A stretch of 46,568 nt of DNA from an uncultured Clostridia bacterium (GTDB lineage Bacteria; Bacillota; Clostridia; Christensenellales; UBA1242). Every line of letters starts with the position of its first letter. Within the stretch, counting starts at the first letter, position 1. Made by a program: the position numbers and the translations under genes. The notes under the pieces are model-generated. The model searched no databases, was not told where the DNA came from, and saw only the letters and a list, made by a program, of their open reading frames with translations. Shown here in pieces: positions 3,985 through 42,226 of the stretch. The stretch is taken from positions 1 to 46,568 of the forward strand of contig CANBAX010000001.1 of the NCBI GenBank assembly GCA_947366645.1. Reading direction: 5' to 3'.

Positions 3985-4132
3985 AGTTTTCACCTCCTAT
4001 TTTCAAGGTCATTCACCTTGTATATATAGGTTGGGCATTTTTTCTTTTTTTATACATTGTTGTGGGAAGGTATGGCTTGTAGAAATAGGTTTAATAGCTG
4101 CGTCTTCTGCTATGGACGAAATAATGGAGGAT

Positions 4133-4229
4133 AGATTTCTCCGCTTCGGGCTATCGCCCTTCGGTCGAAATGACATAATAAAAAAATGGCTTCGGTCGAA
4201 ATGACGAGGTAAGTGAGGTCGAAATGACA
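4133..4229 (+). repeat. mosaic repeat cluster R2
   Basis: A unit 4133-4175 (inner hairpin GGGCTATCGCCC). Short units 4194-4206 (ends ATGACG) and 4217-4229. Confidence 0.9.
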
Positions 4230-4242
4230 AGATTATTTGGCA

Positions 4243-4270
4243 ACAAAAAAAGATGCTTTCGCATCTTTTT
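4243..4270 (-). terminator. rho-independent terminator downstream of the DUF1292 gene
   Basis: AAGATGC-tttc-GCATCTT flanked by an A-run and a T-run (bidirectional shape). Confidence 0.75.
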
Positions 4271-4288
4271 ACTTTTTGATTTAACAAA

Positions 4289-4723
4289 TTACTTTGTTGT
4301 CTTTTTGCCGGCAGTTTTTCCTGCTGTCTTTGCTGGAGTTTTCTTCTCTGCTTGTTTTTTTGTTGTTGTTTTCTTAGCAGGTTTTTTAGCTGATGCCTCT
4401 TCAAGAAGGTCATAATATTTATCAAATACTGATATTGCAATTTCCTCATTTTCTTCTACGCGAAGCACTGTATTGCCTTGTTTATCTTGCTCGCAAACGA
4501 ATACTACTGCTTCGTCATCTGCAATACCCTCTACCTTATCTATTGGCTTTAATACTACATAGAGTTTTCTATCATTTTCCAAATCGTAAGGAATTATCGC
4601 TACCTGCTCAAAACTTATCTGTCTACCATTCTCATCTTGTAATACTATTGGCTCTCTATTTTCTTGGTCGAGTAGTATATCAAGTAAATCTAGTGGTTGT
4701 TTTGCTTGTTCTTTCTTTTCCAT
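4289..4723 (-). CDS. DUF1292 (YrzB-like) protein with Lys/Ala/Thr-rich C-terminal tail
   Basis: 144 aa. The FEQVAIIPYD...KLYVVLKPID...DEAVVF pattern is typical of DUF1292. It lies directly downstream of ruvX, as in Bacillus yrrK-yrzB. Confidence 0.75.
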   Translation of the reverse strand: MEKKEQAKQPLDLLDILLDQENREPIVLQDENGRQISFEQVAIIPYDLENDRKLYVVLKPIDKVEGIADDEAVVFVCEQDKQGNTVLRVEENEEIAISVFDKYYDLLEEASAKKPAKKTTTKKQAEKKTPAKTAGKTAGKKTTK

Positions 4724-5201: not shown

Positions 5202-7727
5202 TTACTTACATTCGTACAAGTTTTTTCCCTTTCCTACCGTTGCAACAAGTGGCACTTTGAGTTTTACTACATTCTCCATTTCACGACGAAGAAGTTTTTC
5301 CACCTCTTCTTCCTCACCTTTATAGGTATCAATAATAAGCTCGTCATGAATCTGTAAAATTAACTGACTTTTTTTGCCTTTTAGTGCCTTCTGCACATTT
5401 ATCATTGCGAGTTTTATTATATCTGAGGCACTTCCCTGCATTGGCATATTCATTGCCACCCTTTGCCCAAAGCTGCGAGTTTGATATTTTGATGAGGAAA
5501 GTTCGGGTATTCTTCTAATTCGACCAAACATGGTTTTTATATAACCTGCTTTTGTCGCTTCCTCAACATTTTTTTCCATAAATTCTTTTACTTTTGGATA
5601 CCGCGAAAAATATGAATCAATATATGATTTTGCTTTTGCCCTTGAACTTTTTATATTTTGACTTAAGCCATAATCGCTTATTCCATATATTATACCAAAA
5701 TTTACCGCCTTCGCTTCCCGTCTTTGGTCGGCTGTTGGCTTACTTACCCCGAAGATTTGGCAAGCCGTCAAAGTGTGAATATCCTCGCCGCGTTTATATG
5801 CCTCGATTAAATGTTCCTCCCCAGACATATCTGCCAAAAGTCTAAGTTCAATTTGGTTATAATCGGCTGAGATTAAACTTCCGCCCTCAAACTTAGATTC
5901 AAAAATTTTGCGTAGCTCCCGCCCCTCTTCGTCACGTGTTGGTATGGTTTGAAGGTTTGGCTCGCTGCTGGAAAGCCTGCCTGTACTTGTTAATGCCTGA
6001 TTAAAGGTGGTGTGGATTATATTCCCGCCTTCCTTACACAATTTTTTATAAACATCTATATATGTGTTTTTGAGTTTTGAAAGTTTACGATGTTTTAGTA
6101 TTAAGTCCACTATTGGTATATATCTTACTTCTTCAAGCACTCCCACCGCGGTGGACTGCTTTTTATTATTCCATGTTTCTATTTTAAGTTTATCAAATAG
6201 TACACTTGCGACCTGTTTTGGCGAATTGATATTAAATTCTTCTCCAGCTATCTCATAAATTTCTTTAGAAAGTTTTTCAAGACGTATTGTATAATCACTA
6301 TCTAGGTCATCAAGTTTCCTTTCATTGATTTGAAAGCCACTTTCTTCCATTTCTACTAAGATTTCAACAAGCGGAAGTTCTATTTCCTCGTATACCTTAT
6401 TTAGCCCTTCCTCTTTAAGCGTTTCCATGTAGTTATTGTACAAATCATAATAACCTGAGGTTTCCGAAGTTATCTCCCCATTTTTTAAACCTGCACTTAT
6501 TAAATAATGCGCAAGTGATAAATCAAAATAATTTACAAATTTAATTCCAAGTTTCTTTAAATAATGCAAGTCACTCTTTGCATCAATAGTTAATTTCACT
6601 ACATTTTTATCTTCAAATATTGGTTTTAATATTTGGCAGGCCTGTTCGAGTGAAAGTTCACTACCGAACATTGTGTAATTATCATTTAGATAGTATTCTT
6701 TATCTTTATTAAAAGCAAAGGTCATCTTTTTTAAGTTATATGCAAAAGATTTCTCCGCTACGGTCGAAATGACAGATGAAGAGGTGGTCGAAATGACAAA
6801 GGAAGAAACAAGATTTTGCAAAGTCTCATGAGAAAGTTCCTCACGTTCTGCTTTTTTTATTGGCGAGATGGTTTTACCAAACAGGCTATTATTTTTTACA
6901 AGGGAGGAAAAATCCCATTTTACAAAAAATTCATGCACTCTTTCATTAAATGGAAATTTAAGTTTACACTCTTCAATATTGAAAGGAAAATCGCAGTCTG
7001 TTTTAATTGTCGCAAGTGTTTTGGAAATATCGGCGTCTTCTTTACCGTCAATTAATTTTTCTTTGAGTTTTCCATTTATTTTATCAATATTTTCATATAT
7101 TCCATTGATATCGCCATACTCTTCAAGAAGTGAATACGCCGTCTTTTCCCCTATACCTTTTACTCCTTTTATATTATCGCTTGTATCCCCCATTAGGCCT
7201 TTTAGTTCAATTACCTGACTTGGAGATAGGTTGTACTCCTCTTGTAAGACCTTTAAGTCCACCTTCTTAACCTCAGTAACACCCTTCTTTGTAAGCCAAA
7301 CAAAGGTGTTTTCATTGATAAGTTGTAGTAAATCCCTATCCCCTGAAAGAAGTATTTTTTCACAGTCACAGTTTTTGGTAAGCGTACCTATGATATCATC
7401 GGCCTCTATATTTTCATACTCGAAGGTCTTGATGTCCATAGTTTGCAACATCTCTTTTATTACCGGAAATTGAGTTATAAGTTCTGGCGGAGTAGGCTTT
7501 CTTTGACCTTTATAATCCGCATAAATCTCATTTCGAAAGGTTTTTCTTGCATGGTCAAATGCTACCGCGATATGTGTGGGTTTTTGTTCCGTTATCAGTT
7601 TTATTAATATATTTGCAAAACCAAAAACAGCACCCGATGCCTTCCCCTCATGATTTGAGAGAAATGGGAGGGCATAGAATGCTCTGTTTGCTATACTATT
7701 TCCGTCTACTATTAGAAATTTATCCAT
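5202..7727 (-). CDS. polA: DNA polymerase I
   Basis: 841 aa. 5'-3' exonuclease N-terminus (DGNSIANRAFYA, GDRDLLQL) and family A polymerase motifs (DYNQIELRLLA, RREAKAVNFGIIYG, QIHDELI). It carries an in-frame repeat copy at 6747-6798. Confidence 0.95.
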   Translation of the reverse strand: MDKFLIVDGNSIANRAFYALPFLSNHEGKASGAVFGFANILIKLITEQKPTHIAVAFDHARKTFRNEIYADYKGQRKPTPPELITQFPVIKEMLQTMDIKTFEYENIEADDIIGTLTKNCDCEKILLSGDRDLLQLINENTFVWLTKKGVTEVKKVDLKVLQEEYNLSPSQVIELKGLMGDTSDNIKGVKGIGEKTAYSLLEEYGDINGIYENIDKINGKLKEKLIDGKEDADISKTLATIKTDCDFPFNIEECKLKFPFNERVHEFFVKWDFSSLVKNNSLFGKTISPIKKAEREELSHETLQNLVSSFVISTTSSSVISTVAEKSFAYNLKKMTFAFNKDKEYYLNDNYTMFGSELSLEQACQILKPIFEDKNVVKLTIDAKSDLHYLKKLGIKFVNYFDLSLAHYLISAGLKNGEITSETSGYYDLYNNYMETLKEEGLNKVYEEIELPLVEILVEMEESGFQINERKLDDLDSDYTIRLEKLSKEIYEIAGEEFNINSPKQVASVLFDKLKIETWNNKKQSTAVGVLEEVRYIPIVDLILKHRKLSKLKNTYIDVYKKLCKEGGNIIHTTFNQALTSTGRLSSSEPNLQTIPTRDEEGRELRKIFESKFEGGSLISADYNQIELRLLADMSGEEHLIEAYKRGEDIHTLTACQIFGVSKPTADQRREAKAVNFGIIYGISDYGLSQNIKSSRAKAKSYIDSYFSRYPKVKEFMEKNVEEATKAGYIKTMFGRIRRIPELSSSKYQTRSFGQRVAMNMPMQGSASDIIKLAMINVQKALKGKKSQLILQIHDELIIDTYKGEEEEVEKLLRREMENVVKLKVPLVATVGKGKNLYECK
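6747..6798 (+). repeat. mosaic repeat R3 inside the polA coding sequence
   Basis: Minimal A unit AGATTTCTCCGCTACGGTCGAAATGACA 6747-6774 plus short unit GGTCGAAATGACA 6786-6798. It is read through as ...FVISTTSSSVISTVAEKS... in PolA. Confidence 0.9.
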
Positions 7728-8053
7728 TGGGCTAATGCTTCCGCTCCTTCTTTACCTCCGCCTATACCAAACAAGCCTTGAAAGAAAGATGGAATGGTAC
7801 AAGTGAGGATATAAATTATTATTACAAGTGTAAGCAGTACGAAGAAGACTATTTTTAGTGGACTGCCAAAGAAATTTACAAGGGCATACAAAAATACAAG
7901 TGCAAGCCCGCCATAGTCTGCGATACCTTTAAGTATTTTTCCCCATGTGTCCCAAGCCATTATCGCAGTTTCGCCCAGTATATTAAACATACATAATACA
8001 GCGACATATACGATTACCAGCACGGAAAGAATAAAATATATTATTGTTTTCAT
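7712..8053 (-). CDS. small integral membrane protein (hypothetical)
   Basis: 113 aa with about three hydrophobic helices. The 3' end overlaps the polA start by 16 nt. Confidence 0.5.
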   Translation of the reverse strand: MKTIIYFILSVLVIVYVAVLCMFNILGETAIMAWDTWGKILKGIADYGGLALVFLYALVNFFGSPLKIVFFVLLTLVIIIYILTCTIPSFFQGLFGIGGGKEGAEALAQWINF

Positions 8054-8116: not shown

Positions 8117-9127
8117 TTACTCTTTCTCCTTATCCTTCTTTTTTGTACGCTTTAACGCTTTTTCTTTGTTTTTAAGTGGTTTTATCTTCTTGGGTTTCTT
8201 CTCTTTTTTAGTTTTGACTTTTTTATCCTTTTTAGTCTTTGTTTTCTTAGTTCTTTTTGTCTTTTTGATTTTTGTTGGCACCGTGCCGTCATCAGGCAGG
8301 CTCTCTTTTAGACATTCTGGATTTGACATTATATCCTCTATTATTCTAAGAGATTTACCCATATACAGTCCGTCGGCAATACGCTCATCAAGTGATATAC
8401 CTAGATTCATAATTTTTGCTATCGACAATTCTTTGTTATTTACAACTACTGGCTCCATTTTCTCTTTACCCATAGAAATGAAAATACTGGTAGTACCAAA
8501 GTTATACAAGTGATGATAAACATACTTCAATTTAATTGACTTGAGATTTGTCACAAAGCAACTGGTATGAAATGGACTTGCTTTTGCAAATAATTTACCA
8601 AGCAAACCATGTCTATCACAAAATCTTATCACTGCCATTGCCCAGCGGAACATCCAGTCAGGCATATGAGTGAATACTGATGCTACTTCTGTAGTGGCGT
8701 GGTCATCGCTTGCCATATTTTTTGCGATTTCTTCGTCTACTATCTTTTTAACTTCATATATGCTCTCTCTGCCTGTGAATGGGAACTTTAAGGTCATAGA
8801 CTCGCCTTCATCAGTACGCATTTCTTTTTTAACATCTAAGGAGATGAATATTCCCTTTCTTTGATAAGTTGAGCCGCGCATGATAAATCTATTGAGTTTT
8901 GGTCGCATATATAACACCCTAACTATAGTCGCAAAAACTATATCCATATATGTAAAATGCGTGCCTGTCTTTCTTTCATCTGCCAAAAACTTATCTATAT
9001 TTGCACATGGTACTTTTACATTTATATAATTGACTGCGTCAATACGCTGAGGCATAAAAAATGGCCCCGCCTTATCAATTACATTCATTCCTTTTACTTT
9101 CTTCCCGTCGTATCTATGTCCGAACAT
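8117..9127 (-). CDS. CAT-like acyltransferase (2-oxoacid dehydrogenase E2 catalytic-domain family) with Lys-rich tail
   Basis: 336 aa. SLDERIADG resembles the DHRxxDG catalytic motif of the E2/CAT fold. GGAGAGG RBS. The C-terminal roughly 60 aa are poly-Lys/Thr. Confidence 0.5.
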   Translation of the reverse strand: MFGHRYDGKKVKGMNVIDKAGPFFMPQRIDAVNYINVKVPCANIDKFLADERKTGTHFTYMDIVFATIVRVLYMRPKLNRFIMRGSTYQRKGIFISLDVKKEMRTDEGESMTLKFPFTGRESIYEVKKIVDEEIAKNMASDDHATTEVASVFTHMPDWMFRWAMAVIRFCDRHGLLGKLFAKASPFHTSCFVTNLKSIKLKYVYHHLYNFGTTSIFISMGKEKMEPVVVNNKELSIAKIMNLGISLDERIADGLYMGKSLRIIEDIMSNPECLKESLPDDGTVPTKIKKTKRTKKTKTKKDKKVKTKKEKKPKKIKPLKNKEKALKRTKKKDKEKE

Positions 9128-11692: not shown

Positions 11693-11974
11693 AGATTTCT
11701 CCGCTCCACTGCGTTACGGTCGAAATGACATGGTAGTAAAAACGGGCGTTAGGCGAAATGACAATTCCTTAGGCACCTTTTAACGCTACGCTGGATTCTT
11801 CACTTTGTTCAGAATGACATAAATGGGGAAATAGATTTCTCCGCTCCGCCCTATCGGGCTACGGTCGAAATGACAAGGTGGGGGCGAAAGGACAGAGGAG
11901 GGAGATAGATTTCTCCGCTCTGCGACCAAAGGTCGCGCCGGTCGAAATGACAAATAAAAATAGTTGAAATGACA
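11693..11974 (+). repeat. mosaic repeat cluster R4
   Basis: A units 11693-11730, 11833-11875 and 11907-11952. B/C unit 11764-11819. Degenerate short units 11751-11763, 11883-11894 and 11962-11974. Confidence 0.9.
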
Positions 11975-12019: not shown

Positions 12020-12027
12020 CTTGATAT

Positions 12028-12356
12028 CAGTTATGCAGACAGTCGCATCGCAAGATGAGGAAAGTCCGAGCTTCAAGAGAACTGGGTGCTGGTTAACGGC
12101 CAGTGAAGGCGACTTCAAGGATAGTGCAACAGAAATAAACCGCCCGCGTTTTGCGCGAGCAAGGATGGAAAGGCAGTGTAAGAGACTACCGCTTGGTTGG
12201 TGACAACTGAGGCTCTGTAAACCCCACCTGAAGCAAGGTCAAAAAGGCATTAGGGCTTGTTCTCTCCCGCCTTTTAACGCACCGCTTGATTTAATTGGCA
12301 ACAATTAAACTAGATAGATGACTGTTTAATACAGAACTCGGCTTATAACATAACTG
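12028..12356 (+). ncRNA. rnpB: RNase P RNA (bacterial type A-like)
   Basis: GAGGAAAGTCCGAGC (12057-) and ACAGAACTCGGCTTA (12331-12345) form the conserved P4 halves, with a covarying GAG/CTC. P1 pairs CAGTTATG (12028-12035) with CATAACTG (12349-12356). A promoter lies upstream and a terminator downstream. Confidence 0.85.
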
Positions 12357-12379
12357 AAGGGCATTATGCCCTTTTTTTA
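12357..12379 (+). terminator. rho-independent terminator of rnpB
   Basis: AAGGGCA-tta-TGCCCTT followed by a T-run. Confidence 0.8.
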
Positions 12380-12386
12380 TTAGGAC

Positions 12387-12465
12387 AGATTTCTCCGCTC
12401 CGCCCTATCGGGCTACGGTCGAAATGACATGGTTCGGTTGGTCGAAAGGACACCGCCTTAGGCGG
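12387..12465 (+). repeat. mosaic repeat cluster R5
   Basis: TAGGACAG (12381-12388) abuts A unit 12387-12429. Degenerate short unit 12440-12452. Hairpin CCGCCTTAGGCGG 12453-12465. Confidence 0.9.
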
Positions 12466-26477: not shown

Positions 26478-27035
26478 ATGGAAAAATTACTTAGTGAAAA
26501 AGAACAGTTGATTCTCGACAAACTTGTGATGTTATTTGTACTCGATAAGATGGAAATTCCCCTTACCGAGGACTCTATCTTGGACATTTGTAGTGTGAAA
26601 AACGAATGGATTAAAAACTACATGGACTGCAAAGCCATAATTCATGACCTGACTGAATCCAAACTACTCTACAAACTTGGCAACCTTGAACAAGGAAAGG
26701 AACTTTTCTCTCTTACCTATGAAGGAAGAGAATGCCTGTCCTATCTTTACAGACGGATACCTTTCTCTCTGCGTGAAAACATCTCACAATACCTTCAAAT
26801 AAATAAACTTAATGTTAAATCCTCACAAGAGTACACTGCCACTTACAACAAAAATGATGACGGCTCTTACAATGTTATTCTTAGGATTTATGAGCCTCTT
26901 ATTACCGTGCCTATGTTTGAACTTAAAATCAAAGCCCCTTCCCGTCAGTCTGCTAACGAGGCAATTCACAAGTGGAAAACTAGCGCACCTACAATTTATG
27001 AGAGTATTTATGAAAAGCTGATTAATATAGATTAA
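26478..27035 (+). CDS. DUF4364-like (PadR-like winged-helix) protein, putative
   Basis: ORF 26442..27035. The first ATG is at 26478 (MEKLLSEKEQLILDKL...). The family call is from memory only. The last roughly 85 nt are duplicated downstream. Confidence 0.5.
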   Translation: MEKLLSEKEQLILDKLVMLFVLDKMEIPLTEDSILDICSVKNEWIKNYMDCKAIIHDLTESKLLYKLGNLEQGKELFSLTYEGRECLSYLYRRIPFSLRENISQYLQINKLNVKSSQEYTATYNKNDDGSYNVILRIYEPLITVPMFELKIKAPSRQSANEAIHKWKTSAPTIYESIYEKLINID

Positions 27036-27326
27036 GTTAGGACAGACACCACTCGTCGGTCGCTCACAAATCAAAGATTTGATTCGCTGCCTCGCGGTTT
27101 CTCCACCTCCCACGGGTCCCCGAAAAACTTTTGAGTTTTTTGGGAATGGGAGTTTTCTTCCCTAAGGGGTCCTTCTGGATTTCAAGAGCGGACATAGTCC
27201 TTTTACTTTGAAATCCGCCAGTCCGCTAACGAGGCAATTCACAAGTGGAAAACAAGCGCACCTACAATTTATGAGAGTATTTATGAAAAGTTGATTAATA
27301 TAGATTAAGTTAGGACAAGCACCATT
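26952..27326 (+). repeat. tandem duplication, period 273 nt, about 1.4 copies
   Basis: 26952-27053 (gene 3' end plus TTAGGACAGACACCACT) recurs at 27225-27326 with about 6 mismatches. The first copy continues as the full E element. Confidence 0.85.
27037..27224 (+). repeat. E element copy 2 (about 188 nt)
   Basis: It starts 2 nt after the stop codon. It has the conserved 5' end, centre (27087-27108) and 3' end of copy 1, with different internal hairpins (CTCCCA...TGGGAG, GGATTTCAAAG...TTTGAAATCC). Confidence 0.8.
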
Positions 27327-41704: not shown

Positions 41705-41776
41705 TTTTTCTCCATTTGTTACAATATTATTTTAACAAATTATATATATAAAAAGCAAGCGAAATTGTGAAAAAAT

Positions 41777-41801
41777 AAAAAACCGCTGAATGCGGTTTTT
41801 T
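41777..41801 (-). terminator. rho-independent terminator (bidirectional shape), distal to the dacB 3' repeat cluster
   Basis: AAAAAACCGC-tgaat-GCGGTTTTTT. Confidence 0.75.
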
Positions 41802-41823
41802 ATATTGAAATTTACAGATACTT

Positions 41824-42093
41824 AGATTTCTCCGCGACGCCTTCGGCTCTGGTCGAAATGACAGTGTGAGTGAATAGATTTCTCCGCTACGGGCTATTGC
41901 CCTTCGGTCGAAATGACATAGGTTAGAAAGTATGTTCGGTCGAAATGACAAAAGGTAAGAATATAGTTTTAGTAGAAATGACATAATCCGATTTAATAGA
42001 TTTCTCCGCTCTGCGACCAAAGGTCGCGTCGGTCTAAATGACAATATAACTTTGTAAGTAAGGTTAAAATGACAGTGCTTTAGGCGGTTTTTT
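41824..42093 (+). repeat. mosaic repeat cluster R15
   Basis: A units 41824-41863, 41876-41918 and 41998-42043. Short unit 41938-41950. Degenerate units 41981-41993 and 42062-42074. Hairpin GTGCTTTAGGCGG plus T-run 42075-42093. Confidence 0.9.
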
Positions 42094-42142
42094 ATTATCT
42101 TCCTCTCGAAAAGTTGCGACAAATCGCCAATGTAGCAAAGCC

Positions 42143-42226
42143 TAATGCGATTTCGTTTGGTCGCAAAAGACGAGCGGGACGGCAAGGTCGTAAAAATTTA
42201 TGTATGTAAATTTTGAGACCGATTAG
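42143..42226 (+). repeat. D module copy 2 (about 85 nt), 15 nt downstream of the dacB-like stop
   Basis: TAATGC..TTTGGTCGCAAAAG..AAAAATTTATGTATGTAAATTTTGAGACCGATTAG aligns with 27632-27716. Confidence 0.75.

Follow-up and report, generated by a model that had tools for sequence, protein, structure and literature searches.

The polA gene of an uncultured Clostridia bacterium, encoding DNA polymerase I (PolA), hosts within its coding sequence a 52-nt member of a repeated DNA family whose head and core motifs fill the intergenic gaps around it. The gene is located in the first 46,568 nt of contig CANBAX010000001.1 (assembly GCA_947366645.1), and this whole stretch, analysed at its full length, is called here the window. 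Coordinates given without a contig label are window positions; C11, C25, C28 and C56 are other contigs of the same source assembly (G000), a metagenome-assembled genome (MAG) made of 102 contigs, 63% complete, and corresponding to a reduced genome of about 1 Mb. A single match to PolA was found when the contigs of the assembly were searched. The protein features the Pfam domains 5_3_exonuc_N, 5_3_exonuc, DNA_pol_A_exo1 and DNA_pol_A, and its matches in PDB, by sequence and by fold, are Taq, M. smegmatis, Bst and Klenow Pol I. The gene and the components of the insert are the following:

5202..7727, minus strand: polA, DNA polymerase I, an open reading frame (ORF) of 841 amino acids (aa) that carries the insert.
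6747-6758, plus strand: head motif AGATTTCTCCGC, exact; its antisense reading is A324-E-K-S327.
6759-6761, plus strand: 3-nt loop TAC of the minimal hairpin unit, with closing stem CCG-cta-CGG in the predicted fold.
6762-6774, plus strand: core 1, GGTCGAAATGACA, exact; in antisense TGTCATTTCGACC, corresponding to V319-I-S-T322.
6775-6785, plus strand: purine-rich 11-nt spacer GATGAAGAGGT, read as T315-S-S-S318.
6786-6798, plus strand: core 2, GGTCGAAATGACA, exact; it covers the third base of F310, then V311-I-S-T314.
6799..6819, plus strand: native polA flank, codons L303-S309, aligned without gaps to the LISLLSS / LKNLISK codons of relatives.

The insert (6747-6798, plus strand, hence antisense within the polA ORF) is organized as AGATTTCTCCGC-TAC-GGTCGAAATGACA-GATGAAGAGGT-GGTCGAAATGACA. 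A minimal unit, in which head, loop and core form a hairpin, is followed by one short unit, consisting of spacer plus core and measuring 24 nt (8 codons). Head and core have in common only an imperfect inverted repeat of 5+3 bp. On the polA strand no stop codon is met, and the insert is translated as the third base of F310 plus residues 311-327, VISTTSSSVISTVAEKS; from F310 onwards the reading is VISTTSSSVISTVAEKS327, and the predicted tryptic peptide spanning the insert is EELSHETLQNLVSSFVISTTSSSVISTVAEK. The coordinates, the anatomy (minimal unit plus short unit) and the translation given in a preliminary description of this DNA proved exact on re-reading, and the frame is preserved across the insert, as had been stated there, in a continuous ORF of 841 aa.

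The window holds 70 cores with at most 2 mismatches, where shuffled sequences would give 0.85, and 69 of the 70 lie on the plus strand. Repeat finding in the window recovers as families the head-hairpin-core unit and the 24-nt short unit, which recurs at 24-nt spacing. In the whole assembly there are 145 exact cores, and 17 minimal units have a loop of 3 nt. Having an exact head and two exact cores in canonical order, the polA insert is a bona fide member of the family. A full unit differs in featuring an inner hairpin, and its predicted fold has an energy of -14.2 kcal/mol (z -5.7). The head-to-core orientation is found on the C-rich strand in 18 of 20 contigs of the assembly, and the strand tagged by TGTCAT is for this reason taken as the lagging-strand template sequence. 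Such a strand polarity fits a single-strand mechanism, of which it is no proof. The repeat corresponds to no Rfam family: at gathering thresholds, only RNase P RNA and one tRNA were detected in the window. A literature search for the motif strings returned unrelated primer matches only. The RNase P RNA gene (12027-12361, plus strand, RF00010, 261 bits) lies between arrays (11693-11952 and 12387-12452) that share its orientation.

PolA orthologues were searched in a collection of 5.8 billion proteins, and PolA was aligned to the 15 nearest sequences. The closest are P0002 (86% identity, 827 aa) and P0003 (83%, 831 aa); the remaining relatives are at most 70% identical, and range in size from 829 to 838 aa. 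A 14-aa gap marks the insert site in all 15 orthologues, P0002 and P0003 included, SSF[VISTTSSSVISTVAE]KSFAYNL being aligned to SSH--------------PKQFAYNL. At the DNA level the window is 42 nt longer than locus L021 (14 aa), and 30 nt longer than loci L022/L023. Neither heads nor cores were found in the polA loci L002-L020 of relatives. The genomes of the 86% and 83% relatives hold the repeat between genes, yet have a polA gene without insert; the sister loci L021-L023 carry the repeat intergenically only, in the same orientation relative to genes. Exact cores are hosted by 2 of 61 genomes of the genus, the source assembly (145 copies) and G052 (26 copies), and were not found in 59 of the 60 other genomes sampled. 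In G052 (loci L047, L049, L052 and L053) the family has few copies, single units for the most part, whose orientation varies within a locus, while the arrays of the source assembly are strictly co-oriented.

Because the insert is missing from the orthologues and from the polA loci of relatives, its gain in this lineage is the parsimonious reading of the alignments. The idea that the segment is a lineage-specific insertion, put forward earlier, is thus upheld by 15 close orthologues; the same peptide in relatives lacking the repeat, which would have told against it, was searched among the orthologues and not found. A second assembly (L024, from ENA, 5,980 nt, coverage about 4x, another sample record) encodes an identical 841-aa protein and carries the same 52 nt at the same position; it differs from the window by 2 substitutions in 5,980 nt. 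It is hardly credible, given the agreement of this separate assembly and an insert shorter than a normal read, that the 52 nt have been brought into polA by the mis-joining of repeat-containing reads. A random mis-join of 52 nt would in addition be unlikely to leave open an ORF of 841 codons. In favour of an artefact are the fragmentary state of the MAG, noted above, and one contig that ends in Illumina adapter sequence (C28:9465-9509, where AGATCGGAAGAGCGTCGTGTAGGGAAAGAGTGT directly follows a repeat unit, a contamination at the contig end). We are highly confident that the insertion is genuine and is tolerated.

The alignment of the 5'-nuclease part of PolA with Taq and M. smegmatis Pol I ends at about residue 281, and an alignment with the Bst large fragment, over about 580 columns, places the start of a Klenow-like fragment near residue 285. 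The Pfam exonuclease-domain match begins at residue 329. The AlphaFold2 model of PolA (mean pLDDT 81) features a low-confidence stretch at 286-291, a strand at 294-297, a helix at 300-312, a coil with pLDDT below 50 at 313-324, and a strand at 326-331. According to the model, the insert would be a disordered surface loop located about 30 residues into a vestigial 3'-5' exonuclease-like domain. The location in an interdomain linker, proposed earlier, is therefore right in that the site is structurally permissive and predicted to be disordered, but the loop is inside the exonuclease-like domain, past the strand at 294-297 and the helix at 300-312. In Klenow, the strand following the corresponding loop bears the Exo I motif (DxE). 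This position reads FAYNLK or FAYDLK in PolA and in all the aligned relatives, the Exo I residues being degenerate. The domain is presumably catalytically dead, and would therefore tolerate insertions more readily. In the alignment, DYNQIELR, RREAKAVNFGIIYG and QIHDE, which are motifs of the polymerase, are conserved. The divergent middle domain is skipped by whole-protein phmmer searches, and a PDB search with a 127-aa fragment around the insert was uninformative.

Motif matches inside long ORFs were searched in all 102 contigs, and a second in-frame copy was identified in C56 (1522-1591), within a 454-aa protein assigned by Pfam to HI0933-like flavoproteins. Head, a GCGACC...GGTCGC hairpin, core, 11-nt spacer, second core and a degenerate third core follow each other in this copy, which translates as ...PVISTFSSSVISTDATYGRKVEKS..., in the same VIST...EKS frame used by the polA insert. 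The insertion spans about 49 aa and is missing from 10 congeneric orthologues of about 400 aa; its head-hairpin-core part matches the window segment 39921-39968 at 47 of 48 positions. The polA insert, described at first as the only intragenic copy, is the sole truly intragenic one in the window, but the scan of the genome added this one clear case, in the same frame. In both copies (6775-6798; C56:1522-1558) the GA-rich spacer is read as SSS. A preference for the VIST...EKS frame was considered and set aside, two cases being too few and the other two antisense frames equally open. Of 94 units, 66-69 have no stop codon in a given frame when read in the gene-sense (antisense) orientation, and 22-50 when read in the other.

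Only 2 of the 57 arrays in the assembly are intragenic, though about 86% of it lies in ORFs. Semi-random insertion followed by purging from coding DNA had been suggested in the preliminary description. The extreme rarity of intragenic copies agrees with this, but equally fits preferential insertion beside existing units, terminators or head-like sequences. Two more window ORFs, 4009-4449 (minus strand, 146 aa) and 41727-42185 (minus strand, 152 aa), were examined as intragenic copies and discarded, being translations of arrays with no Pfam match. They consist mostly of array-derived segments (LSFRP..., CHFDR..., RRNL), and would be called as spurious hypothetical proteins. A head-like match in YajC of sister genomes is due to chance, as it falls in a low-complexity Glu/Lys tail. 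The window hosts also two 110-nt direct repeats (26942-27051 and 27215-27324), 95% identical, 273 nt apart and unrelated to the head/core family.

A partner gene of the RAYT/IS200 type was sought and not found, PF01797 (Y1) giving no match in the source assembly, G052, G002 and G012, with positive controls. A Pfam scan for GIY-YIG domains returned UvrC-sized matches in most genomes and, in the source assembly, also a small ORF, C11:7956-8234 (minus strand). It encodes a single-domain GIY-YIG protein of 93 aa, matching PF01541 with 62 bits over positions 2-75 of 78. No other domain was detected in the protein, no NCBIfam model scored above cut-off, and no relative was found in PDB. The gene is bracketed by repeat units, found upstream at 8250-8397 and, directly downstream and inverted, at 7927-7965, followed by others at 7725-7904. 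The unit at C11:7927-7965 is one of the rare opposite-strand copies, the others being seen only in contig C25. Homologues have been identified in L066 (P0122, 96% identical, from the same sample as the organism encoding P0002) and in L068 (P0140, 69% identical, from a different Clostridia bacterium). In both loci TGTCATTTCGACC...GCGGAGAAATCT is found upstream and AGATTTCTCCGC...GGTCGAAATGACA downstream of the nuclease gene, so that inverted units bracket the gene in three genomes. Proteins 60-70% identical to the 93-aa one are found in Clostridia, Syntrophales, Nitrosomonas, Burkholderiales and others; among the 61 genomes of the genus searched, the gene was found only in the source assembly, with its 145 cores. 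As judged from these sequences, the autonomous form of the family is most likely a cassette made of the 93-aa GIY-YIG gene and inverted units. The chances that the cassette is the mobiliser, which is the assignment of the enzyme proper, are put at about even.

Among species-representative genomes, at least 118 stretches hold the exact head...core pattern, which specifies 25 bases; they belong to Planctomycetota, Patescibacteria, Chloroflexota, Bacteroidota, Clostridia, Actinomycetota, Gammaproteobacteria and other groups. Since it occurs unchanged in many phyla, the pattern would imply the horizontal transfer of a strongly conserved protein-site pair. In-frame copies are not confined to Clostridia. 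In an MBOAT acyltransferase gene of Bacteroidia (Bacteroidales; L106:5505-7625), VISTEAKRSGEIS is inserted in frame in a loop. Copies of this type (VISTxAKRSGEIS) are polymorphic among homologues: in proteins 84-94% identical to the query the loop is empty, or hosts this unit only, other repeat types, or combinations of them. At least one other repeat family (FFHPSGVQNDK / VIPSVAKES) is accommodated by the same loop, which is a polymorphic hot spot for the in-frame insertion of repeats. A Bacteroidales ABC-transporter ATPase (L128:1088-2644, ABC_tran + TOBE_2) features a candidate sense-frame array, GDFSASVEMTTNSVEKTTKSVEMTTKSDEKTTKS... (DFSASVEMT...), followed by a C-terminal segment of about 100 aa. 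Candidates in long ORFs of the high-GC loci L078, L112, L119 and L143 were rejected as spurious by composition.

The association of a small nuclease gene with hairpin repeats has a precedent in Ssn, a family of GIY-YIG site-specific single-stranded DNA nucleases featuring an NTS-ssnA-NTS architecture (Chenal et al. 2025, PMC11893778), in which NTS are rarely (2%) intragenic (PMC11893778). As in Ssn, where the protein is about 94 aa long, the single-domain GIY-YIG protein, here of 93 aa, is flanked on both sides by hairpin repeats of its own. Similarly, the repeats are oriented and carry a YGTC tag beside the stem, in the form TGTC-ATTTC...GAAAT-CT. The dRS3/NTS of Neisseria reportedly reads, in the Ssn paper, CGTC-ATTCCC...GGGAAT. 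Both types of repeat reach hundreds of copies, are nearly all intergenic, and are widely distributed. Units of the family described here differ from NTS in having a variable inner hairpin and extra short units, and their strict one-strand polarity and tandem arrays are undescribed for NTS.

Taken together, it is likely that a non-autonomous unit has been copied into polA, where it is tolerated as a passenger, and that the GIY-YIG cassette is the autonomous form of the family. A unit of this hairpin-forming, strand-polar family would have been copied into polA after the split from the 86% relative. The cassette probably mobilises units through single-stranded DNA: its nuclease would act on the TGTCAT-tagged strand when this is single-stranded, and such action would drive the copying. 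The resulting peptide would be translated and neutral, a passenger rather than a functional module. The gene would have survived because the net gain of 42 nt is a multiple of three, as the 52 nt themselves are not, because this orientation and frame have no stop codon, and because the 14 Ser/Thr-rich residues fall in a surface loop, predicted to be disordered, near the N-terminal limit of a presumably dead exonuclease-like domain. The 24-nt short unit is frame-neutral, and therefore could have been added after the first insertion.

The limits of the inserted piece depend on how the native flank is read. The flank has AAATCY where the head ends (AAATCC in L022/L023), and a second AGATTT is found 12 nt beyond core 2 (6811-6816). 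The first 6 nt of the head (AGATTT, 6747-6752) may be native polA sequence. As head-like motifs are carried by the native flank on both sides, the inserted piece may measure 46-52 nt, with a small deletion or microhomology. The flank 6799..6819 resembles an inter-unit spacer followed by the head-like AGATTTTGC, and may be a mimic of the target.

Several observations weigh against the copying of the unit by the cassette into a tolerant site. The boundaries of the insertion are ambiguous by up to 6 nt in a flank that evolves by indels, and no target-site duplication is discernible at polA, again in an indel-rich flank. The hairpin predicted for the polA minimal unit has little stability (-4.6 kcal/mol, z -0.6). 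The depletion of the repeat from genes could reflect targeting instead of purging. The G052 genome, 97% complete, hosts 26 cores and no copy of the nuclease gene. Finally, the published SRM pattern, HGTCWYN(0-2)YYVSBRHN(0-5)WNVSBRGN(0-2)RNCYNB, has 2 matches in the genome, against 0-3 in shuffled sequences, and none of them falls in the units. Resemblance to the pattern is limited to the TGTCAT tag and the 3' half, and by that definition the repeat is therefore not filed as SRM.

Two of these points, the invisible target duplication and the G052 genome with repeats and no cassette, favour a different origin, in which the unit entered polA without any element-encoded enzyme, by template switching or microhomology-mediated recombination with head-like native sequence, and the family spreads passively. 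The AGATTT-like motifs that border the insert (6747-6752, ambiguous; 6811-6816, native), the growth of arrays by 24-nt short units that resemble slippage products, and the lack of a detectable Y1/RAYT transposase go in the same direction. This origin is nonetheless unlikely. In three genomes, inverted units stand on either side of the nuclease gene, the 60-70% identity of the nuclease and the identity of the 25 motif bases across phyla fit an actively transferred protein-site pair, and the C56 unit is nearly identical (47/48) to a distant copy.

The insert might also have been co-opted, either as a Ser/Thr-rich tether altering the coordination of 5'-nuclease and polymerase, or as a cis site in polA DNA or mRNA, for instance a regulatory hairpin, or a nuclease site that would keep recombination in check. 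The head and the cores are exact, with no sign of decay, the two intragenic copies of the assembly share frame and SSS-coding spacer, and Ssn/NTS pairs modulate the recombination of transforming DNA in Neisseria (PMC11893778). We consider co-option very improbable. The insert is found in one lineage only, its peptide is predicted to be disordered and its hairpin is weak; it creates neither promoter-like nor terminator-like sites beyond chance. A recent insertion would explain the exact motifs equally well, and a preference for one frame cannot be deduced from two cases. The preferred reading remains a tolerated passenger.

Repeats inserted in frame are known, and include Rickettsia palindromic elements (RPEs), intragenic ERIC elements and some MITEs (PMC10969869). 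The polA insert resembles RPEs in many ways. It belongs to a family of dispersed palindromic repeats found in unrelated housekeeping genes, where the frame is kept and a family-specific peptide, here of predicted translation, is added; it is missing from orthologues; it occupies a structurally permissive surface site, again predicted in our case; and it is hosted by a small, reduced genome. RPEs are said to have been described in frame within protein-coding genes by Ogata et al. (in Science 290:347, 2000, and in Genome Res 12:808, 2002). The recurrence in unrelated genes, another feature in common, involves PolA, the HI0933-like flavoprotein and the Bacteroidales MBOAT protein, two of the cases being in the source assembly. 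Differences concern size, as the minimal unit is 28 nt and the polA insert 52 nt, while RPEs are about 100-150 bp; organization, the repeats described here forming co-oriented arrays on one replication strand; and intragenic frequency, 2 of 57 arrays here, while in some RPE families close to half of the copies are intragenic. RPEs are hosted by an intracellular alphaproteobacterium, the present family by a gut Clostridia MAG, in which an associated nuclease gene is identifiable.

Similarity to the REP/BIME-RAYT (Y1) and IS200/IS605-derived PATE systems is in the short extragenic palindromes, in their mosaic arrays, and in a strand or orientation bias tied to single-stranded DNA at the replication fork. 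In contrast to REP/BIME-RAYT, PF01797 was not found in either the source assembly or G052, and the associated gene encodes a GIY-YIG nuclease. ERIC elements and MITEs (Anabaena MITEs, large BOX; PMC10969869) are likewise small non-autonomous repeats with open frames, occasionally contributing in-frame peptides. They are bounded by terminal inverted repeats, derive from DDE transposases or are of unknown origin, usually feature target-site duplications, and lack strand polarity.

The insertion in polA is thus a known phenomenon, that of RPE-like in-frame repeats, found here in a different repeat family and host, and apparently linked to an Ssn-type system. A broader scenario, which we put forward tentatively and regard as less likely than not, is that one conserved Ssn-like cassette of GIY-YIG nuclease and hairpins has moved across phyla, and that its units, stop-poor in the gene-sense orientation, recurrently seed in-frame peptides in surface loops, as in PolA, the flavoprotein and the MBOAT protein. 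If true, the RPEs of Rickettsia would represent one particular case of Ssn-type repeats, and many database "hypothetical proteins" of the RDFS...VEMT, VIST...GEIS and CHFDR...RRNL types would be explained. Genome annotation is affected, in that the units yield spurious ORFs and unforeseen peptide inserts in many phyla. The insert site marks a permissive loop of Pol I, of relevance to enzyme engineering. The polA locus provides a clean comparison of filled and empty sites for a family apparently tied to the recently described Ssn nucleases, and a dated insertion in a conserved gene is useful evidence on how Ssn-associated repeats spread. The case shows, in the reduced, about 1-Mb genome of this gut Clostridia bacterium, that a selfish hairpin repeat can be taken up by an essential replication enzyme with no loss of frame.

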